64,000 bases of DNA from the NCBI GenBank assembly GCA_048499805.1, contig JASNZF010000001.1, positions 303,551-367,550 of the forward strand. Reading direction: 5' to 3'. The notes beneath the pieces are model-generated. The model ran no database searches and was not told where the DNA came from. It worked only from the letters and a program-made list of their open reading frames with translations. Shown one piece after another: positions 27,122 to 36,532 of this stretch; position 1 is the first letter of the stretch; each line of letters begins with the position of its first letter. A program made the translations under genes and the position numbers. This DNA is from Gemmatimonadales bacterium (GTDB lineage Bacteria; Gemmatimonadota; Gemmatimonadetes; Gemmatimonadales; GWC2-71-9).

Positions 27122-27604
27122 ATGGCCACCCGGAAGAAATCGGCCGCTGCCCGTGCCAAGTCGACCCCCAAACGTGCCTCCGCCCAGAACAAGACCCGCG
27201 AGACGAAGCTGAGTGTCGCGAAGTTCCTGGCCGCGCAGAAGGACCCGCAGCGGCTGGCCGACTGCCAGGTCCTGCTCGACATGATGCGCAAGGTGACCGG
27301 AGTCGAGCCGAAGATGTGGGGCGCGAGCATCGTCGGGTTCGGGTCCTATCACTACCGGTACGAGAGTGGCCGCGAGGGCGACATGCTCCGCACCGGCTTC
27401 TCGCCGCGCAAGGAGGCGCTGACCCTGTACATCATGGGGGGCTTCCCCCGTCACGACGCCCTCATGGCACGACTCGGCACGTACAAGACCGGCAAGTCCT
27501 GCCTCTACATCAAGCGGCTCGCAGATGTGGACCTCGCCGTGCTCGAGGACCTCGTTCGCGCGTCGTGGCGGTACATGGCCACTCGGTACCCGGACCCGGG
27601 GTGA
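27122..27604 (+). CDS. DUF1801 (YdhG-like) domain protein
   Basis: PKMWGASIVGFGSYHYRYESGREGD...GFSPRK...TGKSCLYIKRL. AGGAGG precedes the ATG. Confidence 0.88.
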   Translation: MATRKKSAAARAKSTPKRASAQNKTRETKLSVAKFLAAQKDPQRLADCQVLLDMMRKVTGVEPKMWGASIVGFGSYHYRYESGREGDMLRTGFSPRKEALTLYIMGGFPRHDALMARLGTYKTGKSCLYIKRLADVDLAVLEDLVRASWRYMATRYPDPG

Positions 27605-27779
27605 GGGCTCTCCGCCGGGGCCAAAGGGTTCGGGCGGAAAGGGCGAATGGAATGGTGGGCCGACGATGGATCGGGCTGGCCGGCGGGGCCCCCATGAATC
27701 CGCCGTCCACCGAATCCGTAGGGAAAGGAACCCCTGCCCAGTAGCCCCACCCCTTCCGACTCGCACCTGGAGCCTTACC

Positions 27780-28550
27780 ATGTCTTCCGATCCCCTCCTC
27801 GGCCGCTTTGCCTGGCATGAACTCCGGACCACCGATCGCGCGGTGGCTGAGGGCTTCTACCCCCGGCTCCTCCCCTGGTCCACCGCGCCCTGGGAGGATC
27901 CCTCCTACCAGCTCTGGATGAGTGGGGATGCCCCCGTGGGTGGGCTCATGCAGCTGACCGACGAGATGGTCCAGGCCGGGCTCCCACCGGCCTGGGTGAC
28001 GTTCATGGCCACCCCGGATTGCGACGCCTCTGCCGCCAAGGTGACCGCGCTCGGCGGACAGGTCTACCAGGCGCCCTGGGACATCCCGAACATCGGGCGG
28101 ATTGCCATGGTGGCGGACCCGCAGGGAGCGGAGTTCGGTCTCTACACCCCGCTGGAGGTCGATCCGGGGCTCGATGCCGCTCCAGTACCCGGCCAGTTCT
28201 CCTGGCACGAGCTCAACACCACCGACCCTGCCGCGGCACTGGCGTTCTATCCGGCGCTGTTGGGATGGGACGTGATGGGGGACTTCGACATGGGCCCGAT
28301 GGGCACCTATCACCTGCTGGGATATGGCGGGGTCCAGCGGATCGGCATCACCCCGAAGCCCGAGGGTGTGCCGGCCCCGCTCTGGCTTCCCTACGCGATG
28401 GTGCCCGACGCCGATGCGGCCTTCGCGACCGCCACCGCGCACGGCGCCACGACGCTGGTTCCCCCGATGGAGGTGCCGGGTGGCGATCGCATCAGCGTGA
28501 TGCTGGACCCGCTGGGAGTGATGTTTGCGGTGCACGCGCTGAAGGAGTGA
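27780..28550 (+). CDS. Two-domain VOC/glyoxalase family protein
   Basis: FAWHELRT...DIPNIGRIAMVADPQGAEFGL and FSWHELNT...LDPLGVMFAV, a duplicated VOC fold. Confidence 0.9.
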   Translation: MSSDPLLGRFAWHELRTTDRAVAEGFYPRLLPWSTAPWEDPSYQLWMSGDAPVGGLMQLTDEMVQAGLPPAWVTFMATPDCDASAAKVTALGGQVYQAPWDIPNIGRIAMVADPQGAEFGLYTPLEVDPGLDAAPVPGQFSWHELNTTDPAAALAFYPALLGWDVMGDFDMGPMGTYHLLGYGGVQRIGITPKPEGVPAPLWLPYAMVPDADAAFATATAHGATTLVPPMEVPGGDRISVMLDPLGVMFAVHALKE

Positions 28551-28732
28551 GAAGCGAGAAGGGAGAAGGGAGAAGCGGGAAGGGGAAGGGGAAGGGGCAA
28601 GCAGAAGGTAGCCGGTGCTCGTCCAGTCTCCTGCGTCCCTCCCTCCCCCCTCTCCCTCCACCCTCTCCCTCTCACCTCTCACCTCTTACCTCTTACCTCT
28701 CACCCCTCACTTCCTGCTTCTCCCTTCTCCCT
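28551..28732. repeat. Purine-rich then pyrimidine-rich heptamer/hexamer tandem repeats between convergent genes
   Basis: GAAGCGA GAAGGGA GAAGGGA GAAGCGG (GAAGGG)x3, followed by CCTCTCA/CCTCTTA x5 and CTTCTCC x2. Confidence 0.85.
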
Positions 28733-29263
28733 CCCCAGCCAAGCCGGCCCCTGCCGCAGCACCCGCTCATACACCGGGCATTCCTGGTGGTGCGCTCCTG
28801 GCAGTATGCCAATGCTCATCAGGAACTCGCCGACGATCTCTCCCCCGGTGAACCGGAAGGTCTGCTTGAACAGCGCCACCCAGCCCGGCTTGTCGCGGGG
28901 GTGATGCGCCATGAGCCAGCCATGGAACCCCCCGTGGTTCTTGCCCATTCCCACGATCACCGCCGCGTTGTGGATCGCGGCCTCGATCTTGAGGCGGTTC
29001 CGGATGATCCCGGCATCGGCCATCAGGCGCGCCCGCTGGCGCGACCCGTAGCGCGCCACCACCCGCGGGTCGAAGCCGTCGTACGCCCGGCGGAACGCCT
29101 CCCGCTTCTTGAGGATCGTCAGCCAGGACAGCCCCGCCTGGTTGATCTCCAGTACCAGGCGCTCGAAGAGCTCGGCGTCCCCGCTGAGCGGGAACCCGTA
29201 CTCATGGTCATGGTACGGGCCATGCCACTCGTGCCCCGGGGCGATGTCGCAGTAGCTCGGCAT
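28700..29263 (-). CDS. tag: DNA-3-methyladenine glycosylase I
   Basis: YHDHEYG, LFERLVLEINQAGLSWLTILKKREAFRRAY, GIIRNRLKIEAAIHNA, FRFTGGEIVGEFLMSIG and HHQEC. Confidence 0.94.
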   Translation of the reverse strand: MPSYCDIAPGHEWHGPYHDHEYGFPLSGDAELFERLVLEINQAGLSWLTILKKREAFRRAYDGFDPRVVARYGSRQRARLMADAGIIRNRLKIEAAIHNAAVIVGMGKNHGGFHGWLMAHHPRDKPGWVALFKQTFRFTGGEIVGEFLMSIGILPGAHHQECPVYERVLRQGPAWLGREKGEAGSEG

Positions 29264-29271
29264 GCTGGAAG

Positions 29272-30501
29272 CTAGAAGGGAGGAGTGAGAAGGGAGAAGC
29301 CGGCTGTCCCTCTGGACCGCTGGCGGGGTGCTGTCGCCCGCGCCTGGTCATGCTGCTCGCTGCTCCCTTCTCGCTGCTCCCTTTGGATGGCATCCACGGC
29401 CCGCTGCACCACCACCTCCCGGGTCGGGGGTGGCTGCCACAGGTCGAGCTGCAGGTTGGCCTCGATGAGGTGGTCCACCGTCACGGTGACCGTGCGCACG
29501 GCCACCCGCCGGGCCAGCGCCCGGTCCAGCAGCTGGCGCGCCGCGCTCCACAGCTCCAGGTCGAGGGTGGATTCGGGCAGTGTCGTGGCGTGGCTGGCCG
29601 TCGTGTGGTCGGCATGCTCCACCGCCACGGCAATTCGCCGGGCGGCCAGGGTGCGCCGGCGGAGGCGACTGCCGAGCTGCTCGGCCAGGCGCCGCAGCAG
29701 CGGATGCAGGACCGCCCGGTCATTGGTGTCGGTGGCCAGGGTGTGGTTGGCGCGGAACTCGGCCCGGACCTCGGGCGGGAGCACGGGACGAGGATCCACG
29801 CCACGCGCCTGTTGCCGAAGCAGGACCCCGCGTCGGCCGAACACGGCGCAGAGGTCGGCCTCGCGGATCACGGCCACCTCCCCCACCCGACAGAGGTGGT
29901 ACTCGTCGAGCCGGGTCCGGATGTCGGTCGGGAGGTCGGGCAGGACTTCGAGCACCTGTGGCGCCAGGAACCTCGCCTCCTCACCCCGCCGGACCTCGAT
30001 GAGCGGCGACGGCGCCGCCAGCCGACCGACCCGGGTGGCCGCCTCGCTCACCAGCTTGTTCACCGCCACCCCGACCGTCAGGGGGAGCCGCATGCGGGTC
30101 CTGGCCTCGCGCGTGATCCGGGCGGCCACGTCCACCGCCGGGCCAAAGAGCCGGGTGGTGCCGGTCAGGTCCAGGAAGGCGTGGCCATAGCCGTGCGGCT
30201 CAATGACCGGGGCGTAGACCCGGAGGACCTCGTGCAGGGCGCGCGAGGCGCGCGAGTACAGCCGGGGATTGGGAGGCAGCAACAGCAGGTCGGGGCATCG
30301 CTTGCGGGCCAGTCGCACGGCCATGCCTCGCTCGAGGCCGGCTGCGCGGGCCTCCGGGGAGAGGGCCAGAATCGTGGCCCGGTCTGCACCCGGTGCGGCG
30401 ACCGCCACCGGGCGGCCGCGCAGTGCCGGCGCCACCAGTGCCTCGACGGTGGTGCAGAAGGCCGGGGGGTCGATGTAGAGGATGGATCGGGTCATATCCA
30501 T
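29272..30501 (-). CDS. Y-family DNA polymerase homolog, catalytically degenerate (DinB/ImuB-like)
   Basis: YIDPPAFCTTVE, RGRPVAV, LSPEARAAG, GVAVNKLV and a clamp-binding-like QLDLW. The SIDE catalytic motif reads GYGH. The start may be 30495. Confidence 0.85.
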   Translation of the reverse strand: MDMTRSILYIDPPAFCTTVEALVAPALRGRPVAVAAPGADRATILALSPEARAAGLERGMAVRLARKRCPDLLLLPPNPRLYSRASRALHEVLRVYAPVIEPHGYGHAFLDLTGTTRLFGPAVDVAARITREARTRMRLPLTVGVAVNKLVSEAATRVGRLAAPSPLIEVRRGEEARFLAPQVLEVLPDLPTDIRTRLDEYHLCRVGEVAVIREADLCAVFGRRGVLLRQQARGVDPRPVLPPEVRAEFRANHTLATDTNDRAVLHPLLRRLAEQLGSRLRRRTLAARRIAVAVEHADHTTASHATTLPESTLDLELWSAARQLLDRALARRVAVRTVTVTVDHLIEANLQLDLWQPPPTREVVVQRAVDAIQREQREGSSEQHDQARATAPRQRSRGTAGFSLLTPPF

Positions 30502-30503
30502 GA

Positions 30504-30520
30504 CTTCGGTGTTTGTTCGG
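30504..30520. promoter_or_regulatory. Candidate LexA (SOS) box at the promoter of the Y-family polymerase
   Basis: CTTCGGTGTTTGTTCGG, i.e. CTTC-N7-GTTC, differing at one base from the site at 34905-34921. Confidence 0.65.
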
Positions 30521-30523
30521 TAA

Positions 30524-30551
30524 AATATACCGGGTTCAGGGCCAGCGACAA
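30524..30551 (-). promoter_or_regulatory. Sigma70-type promoter for the polymerase-tag unit
   Basis: Minus strand TTGTCG (30551-30546), N16, TATATT (30529-30524). Confidence 0.5.
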
Positions 30552-30602
30552 CCCAGACGGTTCGAACTGAAACGAAAGTGGGAGTGTCAGCGTATATCCA
30601 TT

Positions 30603-33338
30603 GTGGATATAGATCGAGGCTCCACCTCCCTTCCAGAACGCGGCTACCGGCTCCTGCTCCGCCTCTACCCCAGGCGGTTCCGGGAGGAAGCCGAACCCGA
30701 ACTGATCGCCACCTTCCGGGACGGATGGCGGGAGACCGCCGGAGCCGGACGGCTGGCGCAGGCCCGATACCTCAGGCTGATCCTGGCCGACCTCAGTCGC
30801 ACCCTGGTACTGGAATGGACGCCGTCCTGGCGCCAGCCGCCGACCGGACAGTTGTGGGCCGGCAGTGGAATCTCCCCCGCAAGGAGCAACTCCCGCGTGG
30901 ATACCCTCTGGCAGGATCTCCGCTATGCCCTGCGCACCTTGCGGGCGTCGCCCCTGGCCACGGTGGTGGCCGCAGTGACGATCGCGATCGGGGTGGGGGC
31001 GACGACCACGATATTCAGTGTGGCCAACGCCCTGCTGCTGCGCACCCCGCCGGGGATCGTGGCGCCCCGCGACCTGGTGACGGTGCACGCCGTGAGTCCC
31101 GATGGCTCGAGCTTCCATGCCTTCTCCCATCGCGGATTTGAGCATCTCCGGGAAGCCGGCGGCGGTTTGCAGGATCTGGCGGCGTGGAGCACCGCCCCTG
31201 CGGTGATCGCGACCGATGGCGACCCGGAACTGCTGGTCGGCATGGGGGTGAGCGCCAACTATTTCAGCCTGCTTGGGGCGCGGCCGGTCCAGGGCCGTCT
31301 CCTGGTGCCCGAGGATGACGCCGGAATCGCGGGGCCCCGGGTGGTGGTGTTGAGCCACGCGGCCTGGCAGCGTCGTTTCGCGGGGGATCCCTCGCTGGTG
31401 GGTCAGGTGATCAACCTCAACGGTGAACCGTTCACGGTGGTGGGGGTGGCCGAGCCGGGATTTCAGGGGCATGTGGTGGCGGTGGACGTGGCGGCCTGGA
31501 TTCCGATCGGGGTCGGCCTGCCCCCCGAACGCGCGCCGGAGCTGGCCAATCCACGTGCCAGTTGGATCGAGCTGCTGGGGCGCCTGGCGCCGGGTACCAC
31601 GCCGGCCCAGGCTGCCGCGGCGCTGACCACCGTCCAGGCCCAGTTCATGGCGGGGGTGGGATTCGAGGGCCAGCGTGGGGTGGATGTGCGTCGGTACGCC
31701 CCGGTGCCGGCGCCAGCGCTGTTGCCGGTGGCGGGATTCCTGGGGATGCTGGTGATCCTGACCGGCCTGATCCTGCTGATCGCCAGCGCCAACGTGGCCA
31801 ACATGCTGCTGGCGCGCGCTGCGGGGCGGGGGCGCGAGATCGCGGTGCGGCTGGCGCTGGGTGCCAGCCGGACTCGACTGGTGCGGCAGCTCCTGACCGA
31901 GAGCATGCTGCTGTTCGCGTTCGGCGGCGCCAGCGGGATCCTCGTCGCCGTCTGGCTCACCGGGGTGTTGAGCCAGGTGCGTCCTCCCATACCGGTTCCC
32001 ATCCTCCTGGACTTCTCAGTCGACCTGCCAGTGCTGCTGGCCGCCCTCGCCCTGACCCTGCTGACCGGGATCACCTTTGGTCTGGCGCCGGCGCTGCAAT
32101 CCACCCGGCCCGACCTGACCCGGTCGCTCAAGGATGAACCGGGGCTGGTCCGGGTGGGCCGACATCGGATCCGGGGTGCCTTCGTGGTGGCGCAGGTGGC
32201 TGCGACCACCCTGCTGCTGGTGGTGGCCGGGCTCTTCATCCGCACCTTGGGGCGCGCCGCCTCCATGGAGCTGGGGTTCGAGGTGGCTGGACTCCACGCG
32301 GTCATGTCCGACCTCCGCGTGCAACGGTACACGCCCGAGCAGACCCTGGCCTTCATCGAGGAGGTCCAGCGGCAGGCCGCCGAGCTCCCCGGGGTTACCT
32401 CGGCCGGCGCGATCGATATCCTGCCCCTCAACATGTCCAACCAGACGTCGGTACTGGCCATCGAGGGCCGCGATCCGGTCGAGGGCGTGGGCCGCTTCGA
32501 GACCGACTTCGCCCGGGCCACGCCGGGGTACCTGGGCACCATCGGCATTCCGATCGTCCGAGGTCGAGGGCTGGCCCCCACCGACCGGGACGGTGGGCCG
32601 GCCGTGGCGGTGATCAACGAGGCCCTGGCCCGGAGGGTATGGCCCGGCGAGGACCCCGTGGGGAAACTGATGCAGTTCGGGTCCTTCACCGAGGGCACCC
32701 TCACCGAGGTGGTCGGGGTGGCTCGCGACAGCAAGTACCGAAGCCTGGGTGACCGGAACCGGCCCATGGTGTATCTCGCAGCGGCACAGCAGGCCCCGCG
32801 GGACATGGCCCTGCTGGTGCGCACGGCGCCGGGCGGGCCGGATCCGGCCCCCGCACTCCGTGCCCTGGTTCGCCAACTCGATCCTGATCTTCCCCTGCTC
32901 ATCAATCGACCGTACCGGGAGGTAATCGGCATTTCGCTGCTTCCCAACCGGATTGCCACCCTCGTGGCAGGTGTCTTTGGCGTCACCGGCCTGGTGCTGG
33001 CCACCGTGGGGCTCTACGGGGTGCTCGCCTTTACCGTGCAGCGCCGCCGCCGCGAGATCGGGGTCCGCATGGCGCTCGGCGCTGGCAATGCCCGGATCCG
33101 TCGGCTGGTGCTCCGCGATGGGATGCGGCTGACGGGAATCGGACTCCTGGTGGGCCTTGCCACCGCGGCGCTGGTGGGCCAGCTGCTGGGTGGTCTGCTC
33201 TTGGGCCTCAGTCCGCTCGACCCGGTGACCTATCTCGGCATTGCTGCCCTGATGCTGACCACCGCCTTGCTGGCATGCCTTGAACCGGTGCGCCGCGCCC
33301 TGCGGACCACGCCGGTGGAGGTGCTGCGCCATGACTGA
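30603..33338 (+). CDS. ADOP-type duplicated MacB/FtsX-like ABC permease with an N-terminal prefix domain
   Basis: RGYRLLLRLYPRRFREE, WQDLRYALRTL, IASANVANMLLAR, EIAVRLALGA and RRREIGVRMALGA. Start (GTG 30603) is uncertain. Confidence 0.92.
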   Translation: MDIDRGSTSLPERGYRLLLRLYPRRFREEAEPELIATFRDGWRETAGAGRLAQARYLRLILADLSRTLVLEWTPSWRQPPTGQLWAGSGISPARSNSRVDTLWQDLRYALRTLRASPLATVVAAVTIAIGVGATTTIFSVANALLLRTPPGIVAPRDLVTVHAVSPDGSSFHAFSHRGFEHLREAGGGLQDLAAWSTAPAVIATDGDPELLVGMGVSANYFSLLGARPVQGRLLVPEDDAGIAGPRVVVLSHAAWQRRFAGDPSLVGQVINLNGEPFTVVGVAEPGFQGHVVAVDVAAWIPIGVGLPPERAPELANPRASWIELLGRLAPGTTPAQAAAALTTVQAQFMAGVGFEGQRGVDVRRYAPVPAPALLPVAGFLGMLVILTGLILLIASANVANMLLARAAGRGREIAVRLALGASRTRLVRQLLTESMLLFAFGGASGILVAVWLTGVLSQVRPPIPVPILLDFSVDLPVLLAALALTLLTGITFGLAPALQSTRPDLTRSLKDEPGLVRVGRHRIRGAFVVAQVAATTLLLVVAGLFIRTLGRAASMELGFEVAGLHAVMSDLRVQRYTPEQTLAFIEEVQRQAAELPGVTSAGAIDILPLNMSNQTSVLAIEGRDPVEGVGRFETDFARATPGYLGTIGIPIVRGRGLAPTDRDGGPAVAVINEALARRVWPGEDPVGKLMQFGSFTEGTLTEVVGVARDSKYRSLGDRNRPMVYLAAAQQAPRDMALLVRTAPGGPDPAPALRALVRQLDPDLPLLINRPYREVIGISLLPNRIATLVAGVFGVTGLVLATVGLYGVLAFTVQRRRREIGVRMALGAGNARIRRLVLRDGMRLTGIGLLVGLATAALVGQLLGGLLLGLSPLDPVTYLGIAALMLTTALLACLEPVRRALRTTPVEVLRHD

Positions 33339-33678
33339 AGAGGCCGCCGGGCTGCCGATGTCGCCCCGGGTCTTTGCCATTCTCCTCCTGCTGGCCCGGG
33401 AGCCGTGCCATGGTTATCGGCTCATGCAGGACCTGCGCGCGGGAATCGCCGGTGAATCGTGGGTGGTGGGTCCGGCCACCCTCTATCGCACCCTGCGCGA
33501 CCTGGAGCTGCGTGGTTGGATCCGGGGCAAGGATGGTCAAGCCGGTTCGAGCGGCGGCCCACCCCGGCGGGAGTACCGGTTGACAGACGCCGGGCGAAAG
33601 GTGGCCAGCGCCGAGGTGGCCCGGATGACCCGGCTGGTTGGGGTGGCGGTGCGCCAGCAGCTGGTGACACCAGGCTGA
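33331..33678 (+). CDS. PadR family transcriptional regulator
   Basis: FAILLLLAREPCHGYRLM...GPATLYRTLRDLELRGWI...RREYRLTDAG. ATG 33331 overlaps the permease stop. Confidence 0.9.
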   Translation: MTEEAAGLPMSPRVFAILLLLAREPCHGYRLMQDLRAGIAGESWVVGPATLYRTLRDLELRGWIRGKDGQAGSSGGPPRREYRLTDAGRKVASAEVARMTRLVGVAVRQQLVTPG

Positions 33679-33690
33679 ACGGGGCCGCGG

Positions 33691-34740
33691 CTACTCCGAA
33701 GGGCCGACGGCCGGATCCTCTCCCACGATGGCGGCCATCCTCCGGCGCAGTGCGTCCTGGTACGGGCGCCCCAGGTGCTGGCGGTGGCGATATCCTGCGG
33801 TGTACCGATCGACCAGTTCGGGAAACTCCTCCGCCAGGAGCGGGAGGAACCGGGCGCGGGCCGCCGGGTTGAGCCGGAGCGCCGACTCACGAACCCAGCG
33901 GGCTCCCGCCGCCCGCGCCGCCCGGACCAGCGCGGCCAATTGTTCCTTCGCGTCGGTGATGCCCGGCAGCACCGGCGCCAGCATCAGGCCGGTCGGGATA
34001 CCGGCATCGGCCAGGACCCGAAGCGCCCGGAGCCGGGCCCGGGGGGTTGGGGTGCGGGCTTCAAGACGCCGGAGCAGCGCCGGATCCAGCGCTGAGAGGG
34101 AGATGTGCACTGAGAGCCGGTGCTGCCGGCTCAACTGTGCCAGGAGATCCCGGTCACGGGCCACCAGCGGGGACTTCGTGATGATGCCAATGTGTAGCCC
34201 CTGGTAGCCCGCCAGCACCTCGAGGATCCCCCGGGTGACCCGGAATCGCCGCTCGGCGGGCTGATAGGGGTCGGTGGCGGTCCCGATGACCAGGGGGAGC
34301 CCACCGAGACGTGAGGGGTCCAAGGTGCGAGCCAGCACCCGTGGGGCGTCGCGCTTGACCAGGATCTGGGATTCAAAGGGGGGGCGGGAAGCAAGGGTGG
34401 CGCGACGACCGTTCGACGCAGGAGAGGTTGGCGACCAACACCGTGACGCCGCCCGATCCCCACGCACACCCAAGCTTGCACCCATACTAACCTCATTGGC
34501 CGCCGCACGCCTCTCCAGGGCCCAGCGATGGGTATCCCGGGCATAGCAGTAGCTGCAGCCGAACTCGCAGCCAATAAAGGGGTTAAGTGACCAGAACTGC
34601 ATCCCGGTGGTGGCCGGCGGATTGAGCACCCGGCCGGTCGGGAGGCCCACGAAGGCGGTTCCCCGCCCCCGCTCCTCCAGCAGCGGCCAGGGCGGGGGGC
34701 CCTCCTCCAGCGTCAACCGGAACTGGGGGTCCTGACTCAC
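33691..34740 (-). CDS. Radical SAM protein, spore photoproduct lyase-like (Rv2578c/PA0069-type)
   Basis: LNPFIGCEFGCSYCYAR (CxxxCxxC), IGTATDPYQPAERRFRVTR, IITKSPLVARD, RRLEARTPTP and APVLPGITD. Start reassigned to GTG 34740, which overlaps the upstream stop. Confidence 0.92.
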   Translation of the reverse strand: MSQDPQFRLTLEEGPPPWPLLEERGRGTAFVGLPTGRVLNPPATTGMQFWSLNPFIGCEFGCSYCYARDTHRWALERRAAANEVSMGASLGVRGDRAASRCWSPTSPASNGRRATLASRPPFESQILVKRDAPRVLARTLDPSRLGGLPLVIGTATDPYQPAERRFRVTRGILEVLAGYQGLHIGIITKSPLVARDRDLLAQLSRQHRLSVHISLSALDPALLRRLEARTPTPRARLRALRVLADAGIPTGLMLAPVLPGITDAKEQLAALVRAARAAGARWVRESALRLNPAARARFLPLLAEEFPELVDRYTAGYRHRQHLGRPYQDALRRRMAAIVGEDPAVGPSE

Positions 34741-34889
34741 CCGCAGCGCCCCCAGCCACAGCAAAGACAGTGGAGGCACCCGGAGTTGCGCGCCACCGGG
34801 CCGGCGCACTCCGGGCAGACCCGGATCAGCGGGGCGGTCAGGGGATTGGGGCTGGAACTGCTCGATTCGCTCGGTGTCCGCGGTTCCAT
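34737..34889 (-). CDS. 50-aa Zn-ribbon protein resembling the C-terminal Zn finger of class II ribonucleotide reductases
   Basis: GAAGGAAGG then ATG 34889. MEPRTPSESSSSSPNPLTAPLIRVCPECAGPVARNSGCLHCLCCGWGRCG. GTGA overlap with the radical SAM gene. Confidence 0.7.
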   Translation of the reverse strand: MEPRTPSESSSSSPNPLTAPLIRVCPECAGPVARNSGCLHCLCCGWGRCG

Positions 34890-34904
34890 CGTGCACCGGC
34901 CTTC

Positions 34905-34948
34905 CTTCGGTGTATGTTCGGCTTGACGTAACCGAAGATACACCGAAG
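34905..34948. promoter_or_regulatory. Two inverted candidate LexA boxes
   Basis: CTTCGGTGTATGTTCGG (34905-34921) and CCGAAGATACACCGAAG (34932-34948) form a 17-bp inverted repeat with one mismatch. Each site is CTTC-N7-(G/C)TTC. Confidence 0.68.
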
Positions 34949-34964
34949 CTGGTGCCGGTGTCAA
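34935..34964 (-). promoter_or_regulatory. Sigma70 promoter for the Zn-ribbon/radical SAM operon
   Basis: Minus strand TTGACA (34964-34959), N18, TATCTT (34940-34935). The -10 lies inside the second box. Confidence 0.65.
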
Positions 34965-35029: not shown

Positions 35030-35479
35030 ATGACCGGGAATCAACCGATCCAGAATGGCAGGGCGGAGCCGTTCCTCGGCAACCTCCACCGAAGTGTCGG
35101 GGTGGCCGCCCTGATCCTGTTCATCGGCACCGGGGCCTGGATGCACTTCCGCTACGACCATCTCCGCGGGATGACTGACGCCACCCGCCTGCTCTTTCGC
35201 TCCACCCACATCTACCTGCTCCTCGCCGCCTTGCTCAATGTGGCGATGGGCCTGGGATACCGGGCAGCGCCAGGGGGCTGGCCAGCGGTACTCCAGCGGA
35301 TCGGGTCGGCGCTGCTCCTGCTCACCCCCCTGCTGTTTCTTGCCGGCTTCCTCAGCGAGCCCTGGCTCGGCGACCTCCAGCGCCCCTGGTCTCGACCCGG
35401 CATCTATGCCTGCCTGGCCGGCGTACTGCTGCACCTGATCGCACAGGGATTGGGACGAGAATCCCCAGGGGCCGACTGA
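35030..35479 (+). CDS. Hypothetical membrane protein (about 4 TM)
   Basis: AGGAGG then ATG 35030. Hydrophobic helices with several His residues (LHRSVG, WMHF, THIY, LLHL). Confidence 0.7.
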   Translation: MTGNQPIQNGRAEPFLGNLHRSVGVAALILFIGTGAWMHFRYDHLRGMTDATRLLFRSTHIYLLLAALLNVAMGLGYRAAPGGWPAVLQRIGSALLLLTPLLFLAGFLSEPWLGDLQRPWSRPGIYACLAGVLLHLIAQGLGRESPGAD

Positions 35480-35497
35480 CCCCAAGCGGTGAGACTT

Positions 35498-35625
35498 CCC
35501 CCACCCCCCACCCCCCACTCCCCCTCACCCAGCCACCGCCCCCAGCCCCCAGTCCCCAGTCCCCAGTCCCCAGCCCCGACACCCGATACCCGATACCTAT
35601 TCCCTATTCCCCACTCCTCCCCAAT
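35498..35625. repeat. C-rich heptamer tandem array (G-rich on the minus strand)
   Basis: CCCCCAC x3, CCCCAGT x3 (35547-35567), CCCCAGC, ACCCGAT x2 and CCTATTC x2. Confidence 0.85.
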
Positions 35626-35635
35626 CTTCCCTCTC

Positions 35636-36532
35636 ATGCCTACCCCGGACCACGAAGCGATGGCCGCCACGCTCGAGGCGACTGGACGCTACCAGGTGCT
35701 CCGTCGCCTCGAGCCCACCCGCCGGTGGCACGAGCCGGACGGTGCCGAGCTCAAGACCGCCGTCGTGGTCGACGTCGAGACGACCGGCCTCGACCAGGAT
35801 CGCGATGCCATCATCCAGTTCTGTGGCATTCCCTTCACCTATGCCCCGGCGACGGGACGGATCTACGAGGCCGGAGCGCCCCTGACCGGATTTGATGATC
35901 CCCAGCGGCCCATCCCGCCCCTGATCACCGCGCTCACCGGGATTACCGACGCCGATGTGGCGGGCCAGCGCCTGGACGAGGGCGCGATCGCCGCCCTGCT
36001 GGAACCGGCGGTGCTGGTCATTGCCCATAATGCCGGCTTCGACCGGCCGTTCATCGATGCCCGCCTCGCCGGGCCATTCCGGGACAAGCACTGGGCCTGC
36101 TCGGTGGAGGGGATTCCGTGGCAGCAGTACGGCTTCAAGTCGCGCAGCCTGGAATTCCTGATGTACCGGCGCCACCAGATGTTCTTCGATGCCCACTCCG
36201 CCGAGGCCGACTGCCAGGCGCTCCTCCATGCGCTCGCGATGCCGTTCGAGGATGGGGCGCTGCCGATGGGGCTACTGCTGGAGGGAGCCCGCCGCCGGAC
36301 GGTCCGGATCTGGGCGATCGGCTCGCCGATCGAGCAGAAGGACATGCTCAAGGCGCGGCGCTATCGCTTCAATGGTGGGCAGGACGGGCGTCCCAAGGCG
36401 TGGTTCTGCGAACTGCCGGAGGGCGAGGAAAGCGAGGCGGAGCTGGCCTGGCTGCGGGAGAACATCTACGGGGGCCGGGACGGTTGGAAACTCGAAAAGG
36501 TGGATCCCCGGACCCGCTACGCCCGCGGATAG
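35636..36532 (+). CDS. DEDDh 3'-5' exonuclease (DnaQ/epsilon-like)
   Basis: VVVDVETTGLD (ExoI), IAHNAGFDRPF (ExoII) and HSAEADC (ExoIII). Confidence 0.9.
   Translation: MPTPDHEAMAATLEATGRYQVLRRLEPTRRWHEPDGAELKTAVVVDVETTGLDQDRDAIIQFCGIPFTYAPATGRIYEAGAPLTGFDDPQRPIPPLITALTGITDADVAGQRLDEGAIAALLEPAVLVIAHNAGFDRPFIDARLAGPFRDKHWACSVEGIPWQQYGFKSRSLEFLMYRRHQMFFDAHSAEADCQALLHALAMPFEDGALPMGLLLEGARRRTVRIWAIGSPIEQKDMLKARRYRFNGGQDGRPKAWFCELPEGEESEAELAWLRENIYGGRDGWKLEKVDPRTRYARG

Follow-up and report, generated by a model that had tools for sequence, protein, structure and literature searches.

The 64,000-nt stretch of the Gemmatimonadales bacterium genome analyzed here (contig JASNZF010000001.1, positions 303,551 to 367,550, forward strand; hereafter the window) contains three near-identical copies of a 17-mer family, CTTCGGTGTWTSTTCGG, which are very probably LexA operators (SOS boxes) of this organism. 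They lie at the predicted promoters of two gene units, one encoding a Y-family polymerase homologue (polY) and the 3-methyladenine DNA glycosylase I (tag), the other a small Zn-ribbon protein and a radical SAM (rSAM) protein. The core of the box is the direct repeat TTCGG-N6-TTCGG. It is also present upstream of lexA, recA and a second copy of dnaE (dnaE2) in the same genome, and it is conserved at the corresponding promoters of relatives. An earlier note on this DNA, made from its letters, had proposed that the 17-mers are the LexA operator of the lineage, and this proposal is supported by the sites at lexA, recA and dnaE2 and by conservation of the motif throughout the order and the class and, in variant form, the phylum. 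We infer that LexA is the protein which binds the boxes, that it represses the two units, and that DNA damage induces them.

The 17-mers and their consensus

The first copy, CTTCGGTGTTTGTTCGG, occupies positions 30504-30520 (box 1) and the second, CTTCGGTGTATGTTCGG, positions 34905-34921 (box 2); both have their 17-mer letters on the + strand, although as operators they are listed on the minus strand. The third, CTTCGGTGTATCTTCGG, is inverted and lies on the minus strand at 34932-34948 (box 3). All three were found where the earlier note had placed them. Their scores against a position weight matrix (PWM) are 25.1, 23.0 and 25.9, respectively, and the core of box 1 extends from 30505 to 30520. 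When up to three mismatches are allowed, these are the only three matches in the whole window, where 0.25 are expected, and none of 100 shuffles of the sequence gave three.

The consensus was derived from 153 unique sites in relatives and reads TTCGGnnTnTnTTCGG(G/T). The part that is invariant across these sites is TTCGG-N6-TTCGG, a direct repeat with an 11-bp period whose half-sites are oriented alike in every one of the 153. Within the spacer, T predominates at +7 (64%), and +9 is a pyrimidine in 99% of the sites (T in 84%); the other positions are not conserved. The base 5′ of the first TTCGG is variable, being C in 70, T in 33, A in 26 and G in 24 of the sites, and G precedes the second TTC in 45 of the 153. 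These data call for a revision of the motif as first described, CTTC-N7-(G/C)TTC, in which the base before TTC was taken as part of the box. The GG that had been regarded as a conserved flank is indeed invariant, but it belongs to the core. The spacer, which had been called conserved as well, is nearly identical only among the three sites of the window, and elsewhere just the two T positions are kept. A reading of the box as GTTC-N7-GTTC was rejected because the base preceding TTC is not conserved.

Sites at lexA, recA and dnaE2 and their conservation

The genome comprises 3.89 Mb in 10 contigs with 69.6% GC, and is 83% coding according to a crude, GC3-based gene model. Exact matches to TTCGG-N6-TTCGG number 20, approximately 14 of which are intergenic or at gene starts; this frequency (20 sites in 3.9 Mb) corresponds to a chance expectation of about 0.0015 boxes per 300-nt region. 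Likewise, 12 of the 16 best matches in a PWM scan of the genome fall in promoter or intergenic DNA. The single-copy lexA gene (contig C7, position 94543) is preceded by two exact boxes in the layout TTGCCC-box-TAGCTT-box. Upstream of recA there is one box together with an additional CTTCGG half-site. The dnaE2 gene (1090 aa) has one box, which is followed immediately by the -10 hexamer TAGCTT, as at lexA. A search upstream of lexA, recA and dnaE2 had been suggested in the earlier note, with absence of the motif from lexA and recA as the outcome that would speak against a LexA operator; boxes are present at both genes. A double box in the promoter of lexA itself is a signature of LexA autoregulation, and sites at recA and at DNA-repair and translesion genes, here dnaE2, polY-tag and the rSAM operon, are a further hallmark of SOS boxes.

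A comparison set of approximately 190 related genomes and genome fragments was used to examine conservation. Of 50 genomes drawn from three families of the order, 47 have two exact boxes upstream of lexA; within these promoters the four TTCGG pentamers never vary, whereas the flanks have diverged. Analysis of 80 named Gemmatimonadales lexA loci revealed two exact boxes within 150 nt in 71 and one in the remaining 9; the full TTG-box-TAnnnT-box layout was recognized in 68, and no box was found inside the lexA coding sequence at any of the 80. The other orders of the class were represented by 19 genomes, each of which has at least one box. The recA gene has an exact box upstream in 28 of 30 relatives, usually situated after a TTGC-type -35 and ahead of the -10, or else with TATAT inside the spacer. 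The rSAM operon is preceded by an exact box in the same proportion of relatives (28/30), often as two convergent boxes spaced 25-27 nt apart, like boxes 2 and 3; the upstream member of this pair is typically TTCGGnnTATATTCGG, with the -10 embedded in it. In the other classes of Gemmatimonadota (loci L268-L288), lexA promoters possess TTCGC-N6-TTCGC in the same layout, TTGACT-box-TATAAT-box.

The conservation data also refute the notion that the repeats are chance matches or an artefact of composition, to which we assign virtually no probability. It could draw on the fact that TTCGG-N6-TTCGG is not over-represented genome-wide relative to other spacings, but a fraction of one match is expected across the window, and in more than 130 genomes and loci the orthologous promoters keep the core unchanged while their flanks have diverged. 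Taken together, TTCGG-N6-TTCGG is strongly supported in silico as the SOS box of the phylum, with the TTCGC form as a variant in the other classes.

LexA as the putative repressor

LexA is the sole S24 peptidase encoded in the genome. Its alignment with E. coli LexA reveals that A84-G85 (the AAG cleavage site) and S119 and K156 (the Ser/Lys dyad) match. Since the Ala-Gly site and the dyad are kept, the protein should be capable of self-cleavage, and a self-cleaving LexA is a further hallmark of an SOS system. The SOS regulons of other phyla share a core of lexA, recA, dnaE2, a Y-family protein and a SplB-like rSAM protein (PMC7739468, PMC8565304), and the target set predicted here matches that core.

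Among 121 sampled genomes of the phylum, 117 encode LexA. The family to which the window belongs has one LexA; in a neighboring family (f2), many genomes encode a second, divergent LexA paralogue with 27-39% identity.

The recognition helix offers additional, suggestive evidence for LexA. Helix 3 contains HKH in all seven proteins compared from the TTCGC classes versus HEH in all eight from the TTCGG class, so that helix and operator co-vary. Tentatively, the direct repeat may be specific to the phylum, and a single helix change (residue 44 is Glu in the class Gemmatimonadetes and Lys elsewhere in the phylum) may have retuned base 5 of the half-site from G to C. If true, this would provide a natural specificity-switch pair, which would aid in understanding how a symmetric LexA dimer reads a head-to-tail operator.

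A repressor other than LexA could in principle bind TTCGG-N6-TTCGG and control lexA, recA and the translesion genes, in the manner of DdrO, PafBC or UmuDAb. Damage regulators of this kind are known in other phyla (PMC11332147, PMC12392091), and binding of the boxes by LexA is here a deduction. We nevertheless consider another repressor improbable: the genome encodes no second S24 repressor, LexA is found in nearly all members of the phylum sampled, and its helix 3 changes along with the operator variant. Moreover, the two boxes at the lexA promoter of nearly every genome are what autoregulation would produce.

The following points weigh against ascribing the boxes to LexA. Genome-wide, the 20 matches fall within the range obtained with other spacings (6-30), and the signal therefore lies in the position and conservation of the sites and not in their number. 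The co-variation of helix 3 with the operator represents a single phylogenetic split, for which reason it is suggestive and not proof. Lastly, the proposal does not account for how a LexA dimer would recognize half-sites arranged as a direct repeat.

Promoters and proposed mechanism

The promoters described in this work are all pattern predictions. The polY-tag unit has a sigma70-like promoter, TTGTCG-N16-TATATT, on the minus strand (30551-30524), the sole match in the region, where 0.1 are expected. The Zn-ribbon/rSAM unit has TTGACA-N18-TATCTT (34964-34935, minus strand), which agrees at 10 of 12 positions and is again the sole match in its region (0.0 expected). The 17-mers had been described as overlapping the -10 or start region of precisely these two promoters, and both the promoters and the overlaps were recovered. 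Box 1 closely follows the -10 hexamer of the polY-tag promoter and spans approximately -4 to +14, that is, the predicted start site; its end is 2 nt ahead of the ATG at 30501. Box 3 holds the -10 hexamer TATCTT of the Zn-ribbon/rSAM promoter within its spacer and second half-site, and box 2 covers approximately +8 to +24, 16 nt ahead of the ATG at 34889. Overlap with the -35, the -10 or the start site is as expected for a repressor. Because the boxes are found in both orientations and at varied positions relative to the -35 and -10, we regard them as operators and not as promoter elements.

We propose that in undamaged cells a LexA dimer on the box would block RNA polymerase. At the Zn-ribbon/rSAM promoter one bound box would contain the -10 and the second would cover the early transcribed region, whereas at the polY-tag promoter the box would cover the start site. 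Upon DNA damage, activated RecA would cause LexA to cleave itself, thereby releasing the units.

The arms of the inverted pair at 34905-34948 are complementary at 16 of 17 positions, and the pair might thus form a hairpin, serving as a terminator, attenuator or other RNA element, with the third copy a duplicate left by rearrangement and no repressor involved. A rearrangement is indeed indicated, since relatives have polY behind rSAM within a single operon. At the rSAM operon of relatives, however, the convergent boxes keep their TTCGG cores, and their spacers are not complementary (TATATA and CGTTTG in genome G025), on which grounds the hairpin was rejected. The predicted transcription start also falls between the arms, so that only a single arm would be transcribed, and an Rfam search of the window gave no match. 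As the lexA and recA promoters carry the same core, there in boxes that stand singly or in tandem, we consider a hairpin very unlikely and treat boxes 2 and 3 as a pair of LexA operators.

The units served by the boxes

The polY gene (29272-30501, minus strand) encodes a protein of 409 aa with Pfam IMS and IMS_C domains. It is followed after 8 nt by tag (28700-29263, minus strand; Pfam Adenine_glyco, E = 2e-39), and because of this short gap the two are probably co-transcribed. The second unit begins with an open reading frame (ORF) for a Zn-ribbon protein of 50 aa with four Cys residues (34737-34889, minus strand), the TGA stop codon of which overlaps the GTG start of the rSAM gene (GTGA). 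The latter (33691-34740, minus strand; start GTG at 34740) encodes a Pfam Radical_SAM protein of the PA0069/Rv2578c family (SplB-like, COG1533) that possesses the CxxxCxxC motif. Its matches to NCBIfam models NF033668 and NF038135 (E = 2e-62 and 5e-59) are both under cut-off. A tblastn search located homologues of the Zn-ribbon protein ahead of the rSAM gene in 27 of 30 loci, the locus of the window itself being counted.

The units named in the earlier note, Y-polymerase/tag and Zn-ribbon/SPL-like, are therefore confirmed; the Y-family protein, though, lacks the catalytic Asp-Glu pair and is better described as ImuB-like. Alignment with a solved Pol IV reveals that the catalytic IDEAYLD is replaced by YGHAFLD and DMD by DPP, such that the Asp-Glu pair has become Gly-His and the second Asp of DMD has become Pro. 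All NCBIfam Pol IV models are under cut-off for this protein. Loss of the catalytic carboxylates from a Y-family fold is one characteristic of ImuB, and linkage to dnaE2 is another. In relatives polY stands directly ahead of dnaE2, the two genes being adjacent in genomes G019, G026, G034 and G018, and in several relatives rSAM, polY and dnaE2 form one string. On the basis of the replaced catalytic residues, the Pol IV models under cut-off and the rSAM-polY-dnaE2 string, polY is interpreted as a catalytically dead, ImuB-like inactive subunit, of the type known from DnaE2 systems that lack ImuA (PMC6511836).

In relatives with the undivided string, boxes are found solely before the first gene. 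In this genome polY and dnaE2 are 43 kb apart with one box each, and the string is split into three boxed units (Zn-ribbon/rSAM, polY-tag and dnaE2), each of which has acquired or kept its own box. An exact box precedes polY wherever it stands alone in relatives; for the stand-alone orthologues in G030, G026 and G034 it lies 26-50 nt upstream. A tag homologue is located near the rSAM/polY cluster in some relatives.

The intergenic region that holds boxes 2 and 3 is common to a divergent unit on the + strand (35030-36532), which encodes a membrane protein of 149 aa and an RNase_T/DnaQ-like exonuclease. No sigma70-like promoter was recognized on the + strand of this region, the neighborhood is kept solely within the genus, and membership of the unit in the regulon is uncertain. 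The exonuclease gene (35489-36532, + strand) has, in its longest ORF, a proline-rich N-terminal extension of approximately 50 residues.

Box 1 is likewise near a divergent gene, that for an ADOP-family duplicated permease (30513-33338, + strand), a type of protein in keeping with the placement of the genome in Gemmatimonadales. Approximately 100-130 extra N-terminal residues precede the TIGR03434 match in this ORF. Its start is possibly the GTG at 30603, immediately after a TATATC hexamer, which would imply a leaderless mRNA. A sigma70-like site was sought on the permease strand near box 1 and none was found; control of the permease by this box is not indicated, since the gene probably starts at GTG 30603 or near 30900, and this start, like any promoter, would be at least 60 nt from the box.

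Convergent with tag there is a gene for a two-domain glyoxalase/VOC-family protein (27525-28550, + strand); a 390-aa minus-strand ORF that overlaps it looks non-coding.

Other sites in the genome

Membership of the regulon beyond the core is uncertain. A high-scoring box (C3:288827-288844) is situated in the spacer of a TTGCAG-N16-TATCTT promoter ahead of genes for a MacA-like adaptor, an ABC ATPase and two FtsX-type permeases. The sister species G002 retains this box, although the flanks have diverged, and 22 other orthologous loci lack it; this MacAB-like efflux operon was consequently dismissed as a general SOS member and is at most a recruit at the level of the genus. The best PWM match in the genome, C3:474629, is ambiguous: it falls within the final codons of an ORF of 380 aa, approximately 45 nt upstream of a TTGACG-N17-TACAAT promoter, and an Rfam search at this position gave no match.

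Three further loci were recorded. An 84-aa ORF without family matches (C1:650444-650737) has TATACT, a box and the Shine-Dalgarno sequence GAAGGAGG ahead of it, in the same arrangement as at the two promoters of the window, and it is a candidate small SOS protein. A box lies over the start region of a gene for a TfoX_N-domain protein (C1:281826-282278; Pfam E = 1.7e-8). At C7:132355-132372 a box followed by a degenerate third repeat is found approximately 117 nt upstream of mreB, upstream of the predicted -35.

Comparison with known systems

LexA motifs vary between phyla, and with each new one the SOS regulon of an entire lineage can be read from its sequences. No LexA motif for Gemmatimonadetes or Gemmatimonadota, a phylum widespread in soil and freshwater, was found in the literature searched, the coverage of which did not extend to subscription journals. 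The motif and its TTCGC variant predict a small, mutagenesis-centered regulon in hundreds of mostly uncultured genomes, comprising lexA, recA, the ImuB-like protein, dnaE2, tag and the Zn-ribbon/SplB-like rSAM pair. They would add an independent case of LexA reading a direct repeat, along with a candidate residue for the change in specificity. Nothing is overturned by this, as the divergence of LexA motifs and the existence of direct-repeat LexA boxes are already established.

The Gram-positive Cheo box is the palindrome CGAAC-N4-GTTCG, with 9 bp between the half-site centers. Its half-site GTTCG has the letters TTCG in common with TTCGG, and GTTCGG occurs in two of the window's three boxes. 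The half-sites described here, in contrast, head the same way, 11 bp apart, and not one of the 153 consensus sites is arranged as a palindrome. Helix 3 of the Gemmatimonadales LexA, SLATVHEHLSNLERKG, presumably resembles the Bacillus type, STVHGHLARLETKG.

A direct-repeat LexA box, GTTC-N7-GTTC, is found in Alphaproteobacteria such as Caulobacter and Rhodobacter (PMC9578287, Table 1) and has been described for Acidobacterium capsulatum (Mazon et al. 2006, as cited in PMC7739468). In these sources, the second again through its citation, the box controls lexA, recA and mutagenesis genes of the imuB/dnaE2 type. As a motif, the likeness to this box, which the earlier note had cited, is confined to the direct-repeat, non-palindromic design, the 11-bp period and the TTC. 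The conserved unit here is TTCGG; the 5′ base is not biased towards G, and the GG after TTC is invariant. Because the defining GTTC is not conserved in the half-sites, the motif has not been assigned to the alphaproteobacterial/Acidobacterium type.

In Balneolaeota, another phylum of the same wider group, the direct-repeat LexA motif TTACACATATTTTWTACATA was identified through a comparison of lexA promoters (CGB study) and validated by electrophoretic mobility shift assay (PMC7739468). The regulon, which includes lexA, recA, translesion polymerases and a radical SAM protein (PMC7739468), is similar to that predicted here. The motif itself, which is made up of AT-rich TTACA units, is unrelated in sequence, and that of Gemmatimonadota is a prediction from sequence.

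The gene content finally recalls the LexA-regulated imuA-imuB-dnaE2 cassette and its variants without ImuA (PMC6511836). The likeness lies in the putatively inactive Y-family protein, which adjoins dnaE2 in relatives, and in control by an SOS box; the difference is that in this genome the cassette is distributed over three separately boxed units.

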